A program made the position numbers and the translations under genes. 64,000 nt of DNA from positions 19,190 to 83,189 of the forward strand of contig CAVGNU010000003.1 of NCBI GenBank assembly GCA_963630775.1, written 5' to 3'. Below, one piece after another: positions 37,965 to 63,440 of the stretch (positions are counted from its first letter, which is position 1; the number at the start of each line of letters is the position of its first letter). The DNA is from Bacteroides fragilis (GTDB lineage Bacteria > Pseudomonadota > Alphaproteobacteria > Rs-D84). The notes under the pieces were generated by a model. The model saw only the letters and a program-made list of their open reading frames with translations. It was not told the DNA's origin and did not search any database.

Positions 37965-38102
37965 ATGCCACTGAACAACAGACGCAGTCACGCAACACGT
38001 AACAAAATTATAATTTGGTCACTGGTAATTATTCTGGTGGTGCTGATGATTGTATCATTTCCCGCCCCACAAAATATGACCGAAGTTGTATTGTATCCAT
38101 GA
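37965..38102 (+). CDS. Candidate 45-aa single-pass membrane protein translationally coupled to xerD
   Basis: Below the ORF-track size cut-off. My translation is MPLNNRRSHATRNKIIIWSLVIILVVLMIVSFPAPQNMTEVVLYP. GGGGAAA lies 5-7 nt upstream of the ATG. Its TGA overlaps the xerD ATG (ATGA at 38099-38102). Confidence 0.45.
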   Translation: MPLNNRRSHATRNKIIIWSLVIILVVLMIVSFPAPQNMTEVVLYP

Positions 38103-38971
38103 ACTATATAGATGTGTTTTTAGAGGCCCTGTCCGCCGAAAAAGGTCGCAGTGCCAAAACACTGGACAGTTATGGCGCGGATTTGCGCGCGGCCGATGCG
38201 GCGTTACCAAATGGCCTGATGTCGGCCACGGCGGACGACGTCCAGAATTATCTGGCGTCCCTGCCCGACAAGGCATCGTCCATCGCACGCCACGCCAGCG
38301 CACTGCGTGGGTTCTATAAATTTTTAATGCTGGAAAAAATCATCACAGAAAACCCAACGGCAAATCTGGAATTACCAAAACGATCGCGCGCCCTGCCCAA
38401 ATTTTTGACGGTGGACGAAATAGAATTATTGATTTCATCAGCGGGCGATGTAAAAAATTCGGTGCGCCTGCGCGCGATGATTGAATTGGTTTACGCGTCG
38501 GGATTGCGCGTGTCGGAATTATGCGAATTACCCATAACCGCAATTCTGGGCGATAAATTATTGATTCACGGCAAGGGGGCCAAGGAACGCATTGTTCCCA
38601 TGCACGCGGGCGCGGTCGCGGCATTGAATAAATGGCTGGCAATGCGTGACGACGAAAAATCAAAATATGTTTTTCCGTCTGGTGGCGCGTCCGGCCACAT
38701 CACCCGCGATGGATTTTTCAAGATACTTAAAAAGTGCGCTGTTTTGTCCGGCATTGACCCGCACCGCGTGTCGCCACACGTGCTGCGCCATTCGTTTGCA
38801 TCGCACCTGTTGGCGGGGGGTGCGAACCTGCGCGCGATACAAACCATGCTGGGACACGAGGATATTTCCACAACGCAAATTTATACCCATGTGATGCCAG
38901 AACAGTTACGCGAAACGGTTGTGGCGCATCACCCACTGGGACATGCAAAATCAATGGACGATATAAAATGA
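38099..38971 (+). CDS. xerD: Tyrosine recombinase XerD
   Basis: I prefer the Met at 38099 (MNYIDVFLEALSAEKGRSAKTLDSYGADL). C-terminal catalytic motifs HVLRHSFASHLL and LGHEDISTTQIYTHV. Confidence 0.85.
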   Translation: MNYIDVFLEALSAEKGRSAKTLDSYGADLRAADAALPNGLMSATADDVQNYLASLPDKASSIARHASALRGFYKFLMLEKIITENPTANLELPKRSRALPKFLTVDEIELLISSAGDVKNSVRLRAMIELVYASGLRVSELCELPITAILGDKLLIHGKGAKERIVPMHAGAVAALNKWLAMRDDEKSKYVFPSGGASGHITRDGFFKILKKCAVLSGIDPHRVSPHVLRHSFASHLLAGGANLRAIQTMLGHEDISTTQIYTHVMPEQLRETVVAHHPLGHAKSMDDIK

Positions 38972-40195: not shown

Positions 40196-40330
40196 TTCAC
40201 ACCCCCTTATGTGTTTTGCAAACAAAAAACCACCGAAATAATTCAGGTGGTTGGAGGTTCGAAACAATTATCAAGAATTGTGGGCCTATTCAATATATTC
40301 AGCCACCCTCCAACCGCATGGTTGGGGGTG
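40196..40330 (-). promoter_or_regulatory. Conserved leader module L2 (alternative-pairing element plus hairpin/U-tract before the RBS)
   Basis: Minus strand: CCCCCAACC (40328-40320) atgc GGTTGGAGG (40315-40307), 49 nt, CCTCCAACC (40257-40249) overlapping AACCACC-loop-GGTGGTT (40252-40228), then TTTTTT, AAGGGGG and ATG. Near-identical to 60552-60690. Confidence 0.55.
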
Positions 40331-40338
40331 ACGGCATT

Positions 40339-40378
40339 GAAAAAACGAAACATCGCAAGGATATAAATCCATGCGATG
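40339..40378 (-). terminator. Intrinsic-terminator-like hairpin about 10 nt upstream of leader module L2
   Basis: Minus strand reads CATCGCATGGA-TTTATA-TCCTTGCGATG-TTTCGTTTTTTC. Confidence 0.5.
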
Positions 40379-40529
40379 CCGAAATCTCTACCGTCTGCAT
40401 TTTATGACGCGTAATGCGTTCATCTTGATAAAGGGTTTCGACACCCCGCCAATGGAACACCCATCGGCAATGGAATAATAAAATAAAAAAACACTATACA
40501 CAAGAGAAAAAAATATTTTGACCAAATTT

Positions 40530-40579
40530 GAATAAATTTAGAATGGCGGTAGATATGCGTGAGGCGGGTTGCGTAGTGT
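40530..40579. repeat. Half copy (left arm only) of a palindromic repeat, type B
   Basis: GAATAAATTTAGAATGGCGGTAGATATGCGTGAGGCGGGTTGCGTAGTGT matches 40705-40753 apart from one extra T. Confidence 0.8.
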
Positions 40580-40597
40580 CAGCGTGTCAGCCGACCG

Positions 40598-40706
40598 CGA
40601 ATAAATTATAATGGTGCAGATGACACGTGGGGCGAAGGCGAAGTGTACAACTAGTTACATGAGCCGCCGCCCCGCGCGCCAGATGTGCCATTATAACTTT
40701 ATTCGA
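40598..40706. repeat. Imperfect palindromic repeat element, copy A
   Basis: Termini are CGAATAAATTATAATGG...CCATTATAACTTTATTCG. Arms GGTGCAGATGACACGTGGGGCGAAGGCG and CCGCCGCCCCGCGCGCCAGATGTGCC flank the apex AAGTGTACAACTAGTTACATGAG. Confidence 0.75.
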
Positions 40707-40815
40707 ATAAATTAGAATGGCGGTAGATATGCGTGAGGCGGGTTGCGTAGTGTACAATCAGTTACATGAGCAACCCGCGTCGCACATAGATACCCCATTA
40801 TAATTTATTTAGGTA
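40704..40815. repeat. Imperfect palindromic repeat element, copy B (right end overlaps the trxB stop and last codons)
   Basis: Arms GAATGGCGGTAGATATGCGTGAGGCGGGTTGC and GCAACCCGCGTCGCACATAGATACCCCATTAT flank the apex GTAGTGTACAATCAGTTACATGAG. The terminal CCATTATAATTTATTT contains the trxB TAA (40800-40798). Confidence 0.75.
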
Positions 40816-41703
40816 TGCGATGGCGTCCATGGCCGCCGTACACCCCGTCCCGACGGCGGTTGCAATCTGCATTTTTATATCGGATTCAACATCGCCGGCA
40901 ACAAACATACCGGTGGGTAATGCAGATGGTGCAATGCGCCCCATATTGTCACGGGCGACATCTTCGGTCAGGTAATCTGTATTGGCCTCGTGCCCGATGG
41001 CGACAAAAATGCCGTCAACGGTAATGACATCACCAGTGGTGGTGGTTGCCGCCAAGCGGTCATCGGCGGTCTGTTCGATTTTGACCAAATCAGTATTGAA
41101 CAGGCATTCAATATTTTCACGTTCGGCAACGCGGCTGCGCACGATTGCCTCGGCACGGGTAAATGCCCCCTTGCGATATACGATTTTTACGGTCTTGGCA
41201 ATATCAGACAGATACAATGCATCGTTCAACGCACTGTTACCACCGCCGATAACAATGACCTCTTTATCATAATAGAAAAATCCATCACATGTGGCGCAAT
41301 ATGATACGCCATGGCCAAACAGTTCACGTGCACCCGCGATTTCCAATTTGCGTGGTGATGCGCCGGTGGCAATGATGACAGATTTACCAACGTATTTTTG
41401 ACCATTGTCACACGCAACATTAAACGCGCCAATCGCATCACCTGAAATACTTTTGGCAGATGTGAATACAACCTCTGCCCCGAATGATGTTGCCTGATTT
41501 TTCATAAATTCCGCCAGTTCTGCGCCATTGCCGGCCCACCCTGGGTAATTTTCCAATTTGGCAATGCCCGCCATTTGACCGCCCAGTGTATCACCACCCA
41601 GAACGATGGTCTTTTTCCCACCGCGCGCGCAATACAGTGCCGCCGTCAGACCCGCCGGCCCTGACCCCAGAATAATCACATCATACATAACAATATCGGT
41701 CAT
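40798..41703 (-). CDS. trxB: Thioredoxin-disulfide reductase
   Basis: I prefer the Met at 41703 (MTDIVMYDVIILGSGPAGLTAALY, FAD GxGxxG). Redox-active CATC in SYCATCDGFFY, plus an NADPH GGGNSA motif. Confidence 0.93.
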   Translation of the reverse strand: MTDIVMYDVIILGSGPAGLTAALYCARGGKKTIVLGGDTLGGQMAGIAKLENYPGWAGNGAELAEFMKNQATSFGAEVVFTSAKSISGDAIGAFNVACDNGQKYVGKSVIIATGASPRKLEIAGARELFGHGVSYCATCDGFFYYDKEVIVIGGGNSALNDALYLSDIAKTVKIVYRKGAFTRAEAIVRSRVAERENIECLFNTDLVKIEQTADDRLAATTTTGDVITVDGIFVAIGHEANTDYLTEDVARDNMGRIAPSALPTGMFVAGDVESDIKMQIATAVGTGCTAAMDAIAYLNKL

Positions 41704-41957
41704 GATACCCTTTCCTTTTTGTACTATTATTTTCGCACAGCATAGCATAACAGCACGGCGCACGCAAATCAAAGATTATATTGATTTTGCCCTGAAATAA
41801 AATTATAATATCCGCGTTATGTCAGATGGTTATGTGTTTTTCAGTCGCATCTCGTCCCCGTTGGGGGAATAATTTTGCATATTTAATTACATAAAATAAT
41901 TGCGATTTACGTCGCACAATCTTATTATTAGCACAGATAAAAAACAAGGATACAGAA

Positions 41958-60805: not shown

Positions 60806-60925
60806 TTTCAAAAACAAAAACCGCCCAGCGGGCGGTCTAAATATAAAGTAAACTGTTCATTGTGCCGACTGCGCGGGTTTAATGCGGCGTAAAAATAAAC
60901 CGCCCAGCGGGCGGTCTAAATTAAA
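60806..60925 (-). terminator. Two tandem copies of the same terminator hairpin (79-nt period) downstream of the acyl-CoA ligase gene
   Basis: CCGCCCAGCGGGCGG occurs at 60821-60835 and 60900-60914 inside a roughly 30-nt direct repeat (AAACCGCCCAGCGGGCGGTCTAAAT.TAAAG). On the minus strand each copy reads CCGCCC-GCT-GGGCGG followed by a T-rich run. Confidence 0.65.
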
Positions 60926-60928
60926 GAG

Positions 60929-61026
60929 AACGGTGCAGATACGCCGATGTCGGCAAGCGTAGTGTATATGTAATACATGAGCGCGCCGACATCAAGCAGA
61001 TGTGCTGTTATATTTAATTTATTCCT
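60929..61026. repeat. Imperfect palindromic repeat element, copy C (end overlaps the stop of the acyl-CoA ligase gene)
   Basis: Arms ACGGTGCAGATACGCCGATGTCGGCAAGC and CGCGCCGACATCAAGCAGATGTGCTGTT flank the apex GTAGTGTATATGTAATACATGAG. The right terminus TATATTTAATTTATTC is the reverse complement of the GAATAAATTA-type end seen at 40598 and 40704. Confidence 0.7.
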
Positions 61027-62599
61027 TTCTGATGGGGTATTTGCCATCTATCAAATTCTGCCGCACCACATGATGTTTCACTTTCTGTGTGCTGGTCATC
61101 GGCAGGTCATCTGTGGTCATGGCAAAGTGCGTCACCCATTTATATGACGCAACCTTTTTGTTCGCCTGGGCAATCGCGGCAGACAATTTTTCCAACGTCA
61201 TATCCGCGTCAACACTGAATACACCGTATGTCACGGTTTTATCCTTGACCCGATGTTCAAACACGGCAACGTTTTTAACCCCAGGGATTTTCATAAACAG
61301 GCCTTCCAGTTCATCTGGATAAACGTTTTTACCACTGTCCAAAACAATCACTTGTTTTTTACGGCCGGCAAAGTGCAATTCGCCATTTTTATCCATGGAT
61401 ACCATATCGCCTGTGTTAAAGAAACCGCGTTCATCAAACACCTGTTCATTAACCGTTGGGTTGTTCAGATACCCACCGAACACCTGGTGGCCGCGCAACC
61501 ACAGAACGCCAACACCGTCTTCGTTTTTATCGCGAATTTCGCATTCATTGTGTGATGTTGGCGCACCAAACGCAAACGGGAAACGTTTCTTGGTTGGTTT
61601 TGAAATACAGATTGGCCCAACGGTTTCTGTCAAACCATATCCCTGAATAAAAGTCAACCCTAAACGCTCATAGAACTTTTCCACCTCGGGCTTGGTCGCA
61701 GCACCACCAGCAACCAACAAACGCGCGCGACCACCAAATATTGCCAGAACTGGTTCTTGAACCTTGCGCACCAAAAATTCCAACCCCAATTTTTCCAATG
61801 TTTTTCCATATTTCAGGACAAACGATGCCATCCACCACATGTGCTTTTCTTTCAATGTGTCGATAATGCGGTTTCTGATAACCTCGAATAATCTGGGAAC
61901 TGCTGGAATAATTTGCGGCTGGTACTTTTTGAAATCCGTCATGATTTCTTTTGGGTTGACTGTTGATTGCAACAGCATACCCGACCCAAAATGCAGTGTA
62001 GCCAAGATTTCAACCGCAAAACCAAAGATATGATACATCGGCAAGAAACCATACATAATGTCGCCTGCTTTTATCCATTCCGCCATATCTTCCAACGAAT
62101 TTGCGCATTCAATCAGATTAAAGTGTGTCAGTGGCACAACCTTGGGCGTGCCGGTTGAACCCGATGTGAATGACAGCGTTGCAATTTCGGTCGATTCCAC
62201 TGGTGCCGCGGTCAAATCCGGATTTGGTTTGCCGTCTTTTTTCATAATGTCATAAAACTTGAATTTGTCTGTTTTATAGAAAAACGACTTTTCCGCGCAC
62301 ACCATTTTGCATTTTGTGATTTCTGCCATGTTGTCATATTCAAATGGTGTCAGGTTTGTATCCAACAACAACACGCGCCCACCTAAATACCAAATTGCAA
62401 ACATAGTAATTGGGAACTGTGGCACATTGTGCGACAGTACACCCACAACATCGCCACGGACAACCCCCGCCGCATGCAGTGATGCCGCGCGCGCTTTGAC
62501 CAAATCCAAGAACGCCGAAAACGTTACCTCTTCGCGAACCAGAATCAAATTGTCTGGCCATGTTACGACTGCCTTTTCCAGCAGTTGATACATATTCAT
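61019..62599 (-). CDS. AMP-dependent acyl-CoA synthetase/ligase (long-chain fatty acid-CoA ligase-like)
   Basis: I prefer the Met at 62599 (MNMYQLLEKAV). AMP-binding motif SFTSGSTGTPKVV, plus GYGLTE and GDMVSMDKNGELHFAGRKK. Confidence 0.85.
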   Translation of the reverse strand: MNMYQLLEKAVVTWPDNLILVREEVTFSAFLDLVKARAASLHAAGVVRGDVVGVLSHNVPQFPITMFAIWYLGGRVLLLDTNLTPFEYDNMAEITKCKMVCAEKSFFYKTDKFKFYDIMKKDGKPNPDLTAAPVESTEIATLSFTSGSTGTPKVVPLTHFNLIECANSLEDMAEWIKAGDIMYGFLPMYHIFGFAVEILATLHFGSGMLLQSTVNPKEIMTDFKKYQPQIIPAVPRLFEVIRNRIIDTLKEKHMWWMASFVLKYGKTLEKLGLEFLVRKVQEPVLAIFGGRARLLVAGGAATKPEVEKFYERLGLTFIQGYGLTETVGPICISKPTKKRFPFAFGAPTSHNECEIRDKNEDGVGVLWLRGHQVFGGYLNNPTVNEQVFDERGFFNTGDMVSMDKNGELHFAGRKKQVIVLDSGKNVYPDELEGLFMKIPGVKNVAVFEHRVKDKTVTYGVFSVDADMTLEKLSAAIAQANKKVASYKWVTHFAMTTDDLPMTSTQKVKHHVVRQNLIDGKYPIRKE

Positions 62600-62669
62600 C
62601 TTATAAAATTCCTTGTGTTTTTTATATTGGACTGCCAGTATTATATAACCAAAGGAAAAGATTGCAAAT

Positions 62670-63440
62670 ATGAAAATTCTGACATTAAATATAAATTCAA
62701 TCCGTGCCCATGCCGAGAGTTTTATTGATATTCTGCGGTCTGGTGAATACGACACGATTATGGTTCAAGAATTAAAGGTTGAAACCGCAGGATTTCCGCA
62801 TAACCTGTTTGACGAATATGGTTATAATATCAAGGTTTTTGGCCAAAAGAGTTGGAACGGCGTTGCGACCTTTTCCAAGTATTCTATCGAAGATGTGACG
62901 ATGGGACTGCCTACATATTCCGACGTGAACGCGCGATTCTTGGAATGCGTTGTTGATGGACGTGTGCGCCTGATAAACGTGTATATGCCAAATGGCGACA
63001 CAATCGATTCACCGAAATTCCCGTACAAGATGGAATGGCTGGTGGCATTTACAAAATACATTGAACAATATTTGCATTCCCCAGAACCCGTTATCGTCGG
63101 TGGCGATTTTAACATCGCATTGACTGATCGCGACGTATGGAAACCGGCAAACTATACCAACATCGCCATTGCCGCGCCGGCCGCGCGCGCCATAATGCAA
63201 TCGTGGATTGATGCCGGCTGGGCGGACGTATGGCGCACTATGCACCCAGACGAAATTGCATACACTTGGTTTGGATATCGCGGTGGTGATACGATTGGCA
63301 AAAACATGGGATTGCGTTTGGATTATTTCTTGGCAAATCCCACAGCAATGCAGATGATTAAAAATTGTGAGATTGATACCGCGCCACGTATGGCGACAAA
63401 GCCAACCGATCATTGCGGATTGATGTTGACCATTAAATAA
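62670..63440 (+). CDS. xthA: Exodeoxyribonuclease III
   Basis: MKILTLNINSIRAH, VQELK and a C-terminal DHCGL. 256 aa. Confidence 0.92.
   Translation: MKILTLNINSIRAHAESFIDILRSGEYDTIMVQELKVETAGFPHNLFDEYGYNIKVFGQKSWNGVATFSKYSIEDVTMGLPTYSDVNARFLECVVDGRVRLINVYMPNGDTIDSPKFPYKMEWLVAFTKYIEQYLHSPEPVIVGGDFNIALTDRDVWKPANYTNIAIAAPAARAIMQSWIDAGWADVWRTMHPDEIAYTWFGYRGGDTIGKNMGLRLDYFLANPTAMQMIKNCEIDTAPRMATKPTDHCGLMLTIK

Follow-up and report, generated by a model that had tools for sequence, protein, structure and literature searches.

Why does a core gene end inside a palindrome, and what holds such palindromes in place? The question arises in a 64,000-nucleotide stretch of an Rs-D84 alphaproteobacterial genome (GCA_963630775.1, contig CAVGNU010000003.1, positions 19,190 to 83,189), hereafter the window, where the gene for thioredoxin-disulfide reductase (trxB, 40798-41772, minus strand; TIGR01292, E 1.4e-83) stops within a cluster of imperfect palindromes, two full units and one half unit, that occupies 40530-40815. 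A first-pass annotation, made from the letters alone, had delimited this cluster and proposed selection on a folded nucleic acid rather than decay of a simple repeat; our reading of the sequence and a repeat finder agree on the layout. We conclude, with a probability of roughly 0.6, that the cluster represents a non-autonomous, structure-dependent repeat of the REP (repetitive extragenic palindrome), REPIN (REP doublet forming a hairpin) or MITE (miniature inverted-repeat transposable element) kind, carried by Candidatus Enterousia, a gut lineage of the order Rs-D84 with genomes below 1 Mb, and by a few other small-genome Alphaproteobacteria.

A hairpin kept by compensatory change

Both full units share the termini GAATAAATTA(T/G)AATGG ... 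CCATTATAA(C/T)TTTATT and the apex (A/T)AGTGTA-N8-TACATGAG, with AGAT opposite AGAT, and they lie head to tail with a few-base overlap at a palindromic junction (TTTATTC/GAATAAA). Unit A (40596-40706, plus strand; covariance model 86.8 bits) is a full imperfect palindrome of about 109 nucleotides (nt), in which an A/T outer stem is followed by the pair TATAATGG/CCATTATAA, by CAGATG on both arms (the tandem G.A), by a variable GC-rich inner stem and by the apex GAAGTGTAC-loop-GTTACATGAG. Folded as RNA it reaches -53.9 kcal/mol versus -25.2 ± 3.1 for shuffled sequences (z -9.2), so that the palindrome is not a product of chance, and its reverse strand folds at -48.2 kcal/mol. Unit B (40702-40813, plus strand; 100.8 bits) is likewise a full palindrome, with an inner stem unlike that of A, and its 3' terminus CCATTATAATTTATTTAG provides, on the opposite strand, the last codons and the TAA of trxB (..CTA AAT AAA TTA TAA; stop codon at 40798-40800, open reading frame (ORF) end overlapping by 15 nt), as had been noticed before.

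Since the stems diverge between copies, a whole-unit BLASTN census matched local copies only, and further copies were collected by motif and covariance-model (R1) searches. We call forward the strand that reads CAGATG and AGTGTAC. In a gapless 109-column alignment of 12 copies, its register fixed by hand, 96.3% of cells were paired, versus 81.4 ± 1.1% in shuffles and 29-44% in slid registers, and both-side changes occurred in 21 of 38 pairs versus 10.3 ± 1.9 in shuffles. Orthologous copies at the rpsM site also show compensatory changes. The hairpin is thus kept by compensatory change, and the many-copy alignment bears out the earlier proposal of selection on a fold: pairing, G.A mismatch and apex are all preserved in it.

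The fold is built in layers. Its outermost layer is the A/T outer stem, which covaries and holds the first of the purine-purine sites, read as TAGAA/TTATA by 39 of 85 copies and as AGATAA/TTAGAT by 20; inside this site stands a 5-bp stem rich in G.U. Next, each arm bears NAGATN (about 80 of 84 copies per arm), which gives the succession A-U, G.A, A.G, U-A, so that the AGAT/AGAT juxtaposition first seen in the two trxB units holds across the family. Beyond a small internal loop comes the inner stem of 9-12 bp, whose sequence is wholly different between copies while its complementarity is kept, and above it a second internal loop and two covarying pairs. Just below the apex a G-N-A / R-A site is found (GNAG in 83 of 84 copies, GTAG in 54; second letter T in 55, C in 13, A in 12 and G in 4), and the apex itself is an essentially invariant TGTAC/GTACA helix closed by a variable loop of 5-6 nt. 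CGTC/GACG occurs in only 22 of 85 copies and its position is not fixed.

This hairpin is not equivalent on its two strands. In 38 of 42 copies the forward strand has the more stable fold (mean -46.5 versus -38.5 kcal/mol), and in 14 of 14 copies from outside the genus it folds at least as well as the reverse. At helix positions of 85 distinct copies, read on the forward strand, 214 G.T/T.G juxtapositions stand against 47 A.C/C.A, which confirms on a large sample the wobble excess suspected at trxB, and several helix positions alternate between G-C, G.U and A-U. We rejected mutation bias as the source of this excess by reasoning: the forward strand is enriched in C and A, so that a bias would create A.C rather than G.T. 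The fixed purine-purine juxtapositions mark one strand as the one that is folded or recognised.

Placement at stop codons and on one replication strand

The annotation had called for a census of copies relative to stop codons. In the counts below, related genomes are non-independent samples and gene calls are ORF-based. Of the 10 copies in the own genome, 7 have the 3' end of the forward element across the stop codon of a convergent gene, the hosts being trxB, an acyl-CoA-ligase-like gene, efp, rpsM, rpsK, rpoA and rplQ. The second of these hosts lies in the window, where a further full copy (60915-61023, plus strand; 107-111 bits; G000:C3:80104-80212 in genome coordinates) overlaps by 4 nt the stop of the acyl-CoA-ligase-like gene (61019-62755, minus strand). 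The rpsM-rpsK-rpoA-rplQ operon holds four copies, one after each cistron; these four must be transcribed, as the reverse strand, and many copies are necessarily co-transcribed with their host genes. As a separate observation, the rpsM-rpsK spacer (G000:C7:31636-31694 and orthologues) contains a highly conserved segment, GGTAGAGATTAACACGATAGTTAATTGAAGACATC, before the rpsK start, with or without the repeat, which may be a ribosomal-protein operon leader or a regulatory hairpin.

The same placement recurs in other species, where a convergent stop codon lies within the 3' terminus of 69 of 85 copies and is TAA in 67. Sorted by which end touches a stop codon, 86 copies fall into 65 with the 3' end only, 10 with both ends, one with the 5' end only and 10 with neither, so that the 3' end sits at the stop codon of a convergent gene in 75. 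These 75 host genes represent 26 families, led by S13 (11), EF-P (11), TrxB (6) and S11 (4) and including FtsK, DnaN, DnaA, GroEL, ClpB, FabF and S18 among others.

Copies on one contig nearly always share an orientation, and this orientation follows base composition. GC skew in these genomes has a coding component of about +0.07 on the sense strand and a replication component of about ±0.1. The forward strand is the C-rich strand in all 10 copies of the own genome and, by raw skew, in 77 of 79 copies elsewhere; once the coding component is removed, it is so in 48 of 49 loci. Contig skew and gene-strand bias place trxB on the G-rich strand, which we presume to be the leading one. No more than about 65-69% of coding sequence is found there, and the element appears from sequence composition to attach almost exclusively to leading-strand genes. 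Orientation set by replication alone, with the 5' end touching lagging-strand genes, was considered and rejected (one copy versus 75).

Insertion, exchange and turnover of units

The trxB site is occupied in 11 genomes of the genus and empty in 18. The gene at empty sites has the ending ...CTGAATTCnAAAnnnTAA, with a canonical terminator immediately behind it in most genomes. Empty sites read CTGAAT followed directly by TCAAA..TAA, and occupied sites read CTGAAT, then the array, then TCAAATTTG; the displaced codons (TCAAA) persist beyond the array, the mark of an insertion into the last codons, with a duplication of 0-2 bp (AT) at most. At the rpsM site the protein end is unaltered and the element starts directly after the TAA; in the element-free genomes G022, G031 and G033 this site is empty and holds 7-12 nt instead, whereas in the other genomes it is filled. 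An AATAA repeat at the rpsM site, tried as a target duplication, did not generalise.

Arrays change quickly. They are unlike even among metagenome contigs whose TrxB is 95-99% identical and whose flanks are conserved: unit B, unit A and half a B in the window; B, an A lacking one arm and half a B at L199; a single B' at L213; B', a damaged A and a remnant at L209; and A, a further unit C and a remnant at L214. The half unit of the window (40530-40579, plus strand) comprises a 5' arm (GAATAAATTTAGAATGG..TAGATA..) and the first apex bases (..GTAGTGT), ends within the apex and is the same as the left arm of unit B (42 of 42 positions by BLAST; 45 nt at 40535-40579, 98% to 40709-40753, by the repeat finder). 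Half units in relatives are of the same kind and always a 5' arm. Between half unit and unit A lies a linker outside the palindrome (40580-40597, plus strand; CAGCGTGTCAGCCGACCGC), and short linkers of a similar kind precede half units in close relatives and in G021. Inner stems are swapped wholesale inside an otherwise identical shell (B versus B'), and efp sites and trxB sites, in different species, share one inner stem. In G021 three unrelated genes have identical full elements at their stop codons, with similarity beginning exactly at the element, and a second identical pair sits on two other genes. Copies thus spread, or are exchanged, from one locus to another, and on the scale of strains to species arrays acquire, lose and trade whole units.

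Directly after full elements and between half units we also observed a small GC hairpin closed by a GCAA loop (CCCACCGCAAGGGGGTGGG, with variants such as TCCAGCGCAAGGAGTGGG), at L234-L238 of G021 and in the right flanks of many copies among L073-L152. The arrays then repeat about every 91 nt, and this hairpin may be either a compact terminator or a second kind of repeat module.

Extent of the family

Units measure about 105-112 nt. Apex-motif and covariance-model searches found 10 copies in the 939-kb, 34-contig genome, and 31 of 36 congeneric genomes carry the family, with 0 to about 20 model matches each. Beyond the genus, the covariance model found the element in one of four genomes of a sister family and in none of 20 genomes from four other families of the order. 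An exact-pattern scan of a species collection returned more than 120 stretches, so that the repeat is far from restricted to these loci; all came from metagenome-assembled genomes (MAGs) whose labels were Candidatus Enterousia, uncultured Alphaproteobacteria or 'Rickettsiales', and the one exception, a Clostridium match (L131), is rejected by the covariance model as a family member. The source organism is accordingly placed in Candidatus Enterousia. A phage origin was likewise discarded, as the single pattern match in viral contigs is not hairpin-like. The comparison with Rfam that the annotation had recommended left the element without a match in the window at E up to 10, and out-of-genus copies gave only chance matches to miRNA models below threshold. 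A genomics paper on Enterousia (PMC12306168) makes no mention of repeats. The family is undescribed, and of the familiar REP/MITE-like repeat kind.

The covariance model also matches a few other alphaproteobacterial families, and the strict apex pattern occurs in 3 of 401 genomes of the class, with zero control matches. Core boxes and spacings are shared by G184, G249, G277 and G280. In G184 the element reads GCAGAATG-AGC-CAGATG ... GCGCAGTGTACA-loop-GTACATGAGC ... GTCAGATG-GCT-CATTCTGC, and GC-rich outer stems covary between its two copies; G277 and G280 have 3-5 copies each. G249 belongs to another family, and its three copies follow the stop-codon rule. This common core points to an old or horizontally spread recognition module.

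Two departures were seen in these lineages. A 129-nt variant in G249 (L247, L250, L252) embeds a canonical terminator in one arm, CCCCAGC-loop-GCTGGGG and then TTTT, in the direction of the host gene. Some copies in G277 (L251, L253) lie directly upstream of tRNA genes, off stop codons, so that the placement rule is lineage-specific.

A structure-dependent repeat and the points that weigh against it

In the explanation that we favour, copies land at A-rich or TAA gene ends, with hosts on the G-rich (leading) strand and a single orientation throughout, and the terminal A/T stem thereby overlaps or supplies the stop codon; at trxB the insertion fell within the last codons. The conserved non-canonical positions and the apex would form a recognition surface for a protein, and propagation may proceed through a single-stranded hairpin at the replication fork, where a strand-specific target would account for polarity with respect to both fork and gene. 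Persistence would be aided by harmlessness at these sites or by mild use as a transcript-end hairpin.

Several observations weigh against this explanation. No transposase of a suitable kind was recognised: PF01797 (Y1_Tnp, including the REP-associated tyrosine transposase, RAYT) is absent from the own genome and occurs in one of 121 congeners, and the own genome (93.6% complete) has no match to DDE_Tnp_1, rve or RVT_1. A consistent target-site duplication is absent in 60 copies. Gene conversion, and not transposition, could yield identical copies at different loci, and template switching at quasi-palindromes could partly maintain complementarity without selection on the fold; template switching would erase conserved mismatches rather than keep them, however. 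The leading strand was assigned from GC skew and gene-strand bias, with no origin mapped. The main difficulty, which a strand-polar terminator facing head-on or antisense transcription would suit, is that the foldable strand is the leading-strand template, antisense to the host mRNA, which is the opposite both of what a single-strand mechanism of the IS200/IS605 type predicts (IS, insertion sequence) and of what a role in the 3' untranslated region (3'-UTR) predicts.

Other searches for a mobilising enzyme gave little. Self-BLAST of the genome revealed no IS-like multicopy element with the family's ends, and PF07282 gave only a weak zinc-ribbon match in an 859-residue ORF. The Y1 transposase of G028, an ordinary IS200-like gene, was set aside as the mobiliser, as no element lies adjacent. 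Apart from these, six serine-recombinase (Resolvase) domain matches are found in the 0.94-Mb genome on contigs C15, C21, C27, C4 and C19; these contigs are of low GC (0.39-0.45) and island-like, with two of the domains in ORFs of about 550 residues, and are probably prophage or island remnants.

Other readings of the hairpin

We considered whether the element instead serves primarily the end of the host transcript. A long hairpin in the 3'-UTR or between cistrons would then stop transcription or shield the upstream cistron from 3' exonucleases, and selection would act at genes of high expression, whose place on the leading strand would be incidental. The hosts include rpsM, rpsK, rpoA, rplQ, efp, trxB, groEL and dnaN, and many species are occupied at the same sites; a canonical terminator stands just behind the stop at empty trxB sites and is often missing from occupied ones; the G249 variant embeds a sense-direction terminator hairpin with TTTT; and for REPs a position behind ORFs, with the repeat supplying stop codons, is on record (PMC3733652). 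The host mRNA, however, carries the strand that folds less well, where G.A becomes C.U/U.C and G.U becomes A.C (214 versus 47), and a consensus scan of 40200-40900 on both strands gave no terminator-like stem with a T-run, the hairpin itself spanning about 105 nt. Congeners have anything from 0 to about 20 copies, tandem arrangements and half units are frequent, one operon holds four copies, and some hosts (acyl-CoA ligase, autotransporter, ftsK) give no reason to expect high expression. On balance we hold this reading to be rather unlikely.

We regard as somewhat speculative, and again as unlikely, a broader proposal in which the hairpin would be the substrate of a fork pathway that is independent of transposases or uses a novel enzyme, acting on the leading-strand template or the nascent lagging strand, or else a strand-polar terminator against head-on antisense transcription. 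Were it true, the purine-purine 'mismatches' would be a code that gives one DNA palindrome different behaviour on its two strands, and a new principle, conserved in several lineages of Alphaproteobacteria with small genomes, would join gene ends and the direction of replication to the structure of a repeat.

Taken by itself, the second half of that proposal makes the element a putative polar terminator or insulator on the opposite strand, which would stop antisense or convergent transcription at the 3' ends of leading-strand genes: only RNA made against the host gene, head-on to replication, would form the tight hairpin closed by G.U and G.A with a U-rich tail, and sense transcription would read through the weakened stem. 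Both polarities would then be explained at once, the wobble and G.A pairs do cluster in the lower stem by the UUAUAAUUUAUUU tail on the forward strand, the asymmetry is kept outside the genus, and 10 of 86 copies have the end of a lagging-strand gene 0-19 nt ahead of their 5' end, with no space for another terminator. Yet the reverse strand is still very stable (-38 kcal/mol on average), an A/U-rich outer stem is atypical of intrinsic terminators, such a function needs neither a four-copy operon nor tandem arrays nor half units, and 5 of 36 congeners manage without the element, all of which makes the reading improbable to us.

Highly improbable, in our judgement, is a folded single-strand site for a site-specific recombinase, whether of the integron attC type or of the Xer/dif type exploited by IMEX (integrative mobile elements exploiting Xer) and CTX-like elements, with the arrays being cassette-like. 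Variable stems with conserved unpaired or mismatched bases, strand asymmetry with fixed orientation to replication, head-to-tail arrays whose units turn over while the chromosomal site stays fixed, and a xerD-like gene close by would all suit such a site. Against this, no IntI is present and the two tyrosine recombinases of the genome fit XerC and XerD; the would-be R boxes are not conserved (AAY/RTT covaries, with no invariant GTTRRRY), sequence inspection revealed no recognisable dif-like 28-mer in the element, no ORFs lie between units, and copies are scattered over more than 26 housekeeping gene ends rather than gathered on a single platform.

It is likewise highly improbable that the forward strand encodes a family of small RNA genes, each transcribed independently, since RNA-like covariation with G.U tolerance and the position of some out-of-genus copies in 5' or divergent intergenic regions are outweighed by promoter-like signals no higher than shuffled expectation, by abutting head-to-tail units that leave no room for promoters, by the lack of an Rfam match, and by half units and wholesale inner-stem swaps that better suit dynamics at the DNA level.

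Comparison with known repeats

Returning to the structure-dependent repeat, its nearest likeness is to REP, BIME (bacterial interspersed mosaic element) and REPIN sequences, which are imperfect palindromes kept for structure, lie mostly downstream of ORFs with termini able to donate a stop, cluster in arrays, persist vertically and are plausibly transcribed. The GNAG of our apex (GTAG in 54 of 84 copies), followed by a short hairpin, resembles the GTAG-tagged REP head, save that it sits at the tip of a longer palindrome and that its second letter varies. REPs downstream of ORFs, in arrays and as stop-codon donors have been described, including alphaproteobacterial CGTC families that lack a dedicated transposase (PMC3733652), a lack shared by the present family, which has no conserved CGTC. 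It differs further in unit length (105-112 versus 20-40 nt for REPs), in forming one long hairpin in head-to-tail arrays and not inverted REP doublets, in the near absence of RAYT/Y1 genes (only one of 121 congeners, unlinked to the element) and in its very strict leading-strand and stop-codon rule.

With IS200/IS605 elements and PATEs (palindrome-associated transposable elements) the family shares orientation fixed to the replication fork (48 of 49 loci, on the skew-inferred strand), insertion beside a short strand-specific target with no clear target duplication, and dependence on hairpins rather than on sequence. It differs from them in having no Y1 transposase and in that the whole element is one hairpin, unlike the subterminal hairpins at each end of those elements. 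IS608 and ISDra2 act on the lagging-strand template, whereas the better-folding strand here is the C-rich leading-strand template. Compared with a classical MITE, the termini are inverted repeats inasmuch as the whole element is palindromic, and no parent IS or DDE transposase was found in the own genome.

ERIC (enterobacterial repetitive intergenic consensus) sequences or IRUs (intergenic repeat units; about 127 bp, enterobacteria) and Correia elements or NEMIS (Neisseria miniature insertion sequences; 100-155 bp, Neisseria) are of similar size and are also long imperfect palindromes, co-transcribed in 3' or intercistronic regions, where orientation can matter for the mRNA. They share no sequence similarity with the family, in which neither a TA duplication nor an IHF site was seen, and they insert both ways round and are not known to be tied to replication strand or stop codons. 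RPEs (Rickettsia palindromic elements), compared by description, are palindromic repeats of about 100-150 bp in reduced alphaproteobacterial genomes that can join coding sequence; they lie in frame inside ORFs and form the sequence families RPE-1 to RPE-8, whereas the present family replaces the last few codons only. Searches of 150 and 400 class genomes with the model and the apex pattern found the family in a few unrelated small-genome lineages only, in a sample that may lack Rickettsia. Integron attC sites are alike in structure kept over sequence, conserved unpaired bases, strand asymmetry, placement after ORFs and orientation to replication, and unlike in that the family has no IntI, no R''/R' (GTTRRRY) boxes and no cassettes and is dispersed at housekeeping genes; the positions corresponding to attC boxes covary (AAC/GTT with AAT/ATT).

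Small palindromic repeats such as REP, ERIC, Correia and RPE are common, and the spread and function of most are still debated. What distinguishes this family is a set of near-absolute, easily measured rules: fork orientation, leading-strand stop codons and a fold strand opposite the mRNA. Fast array turnover, the lack of a known transposase and a genome below 1 Mb with very few candidate proteins make it a tractable case for studying hairpin recognition, possible movement through single-stranded DNA, and strand-asymmetric pairing as a possible source of direction-dependent behaviour. The elements matter to annotators of these gut bacteria, since core genes acquire altered C-termini and stop codons from them and MAG assemblies are broken by them. 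New here are the wobble and strand-asymmetry count, the trxB insertion signature, the strain-level array turnover, the identical copies of G021, the out-of-genus core, the G249 variant and the GNAG apex statistics.

Neighbouring features and minor observations

Upstream of the array in window coordinates, at 38015-38971 (plus strand) and 1.6 kb away, lies a gene for a XerD-like tyrosine recombinase (PF00589, 149 bits), one of two tyrosine recombinases in the genome together with G000:C10:8028-8483 and most likely a housekeeping Xer. The annotation had reported no transposase, RAYT or integrase in the window; this stands for Y1 and RAYT enzymes, and the XerD-like gene, being of the integrase family, is an exception to it. 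The probable first canonical terminator downstream of trxB lies beyond the array at 40339-40378 (minus strand), where the hairpin CATCGCAAGGAT/ATCCATGCGATG is followed by a T-run; this tentative assignment rests on an inverted repeat (I9) and on the sequence, the consensus scan having missed it. Self-comparison of the genome also revealed near-identical tandem duplications at G000:C13:4588-9338 (2.4 kb, 99.8%) and C7:37331-41761 (1.7 kb, 99.9%). Just past the array, at 40241-40315 (minus strand), there is a sub-threshold Rfam match to sRNA-Xcc1 (37.6 bits, E 2e-4).

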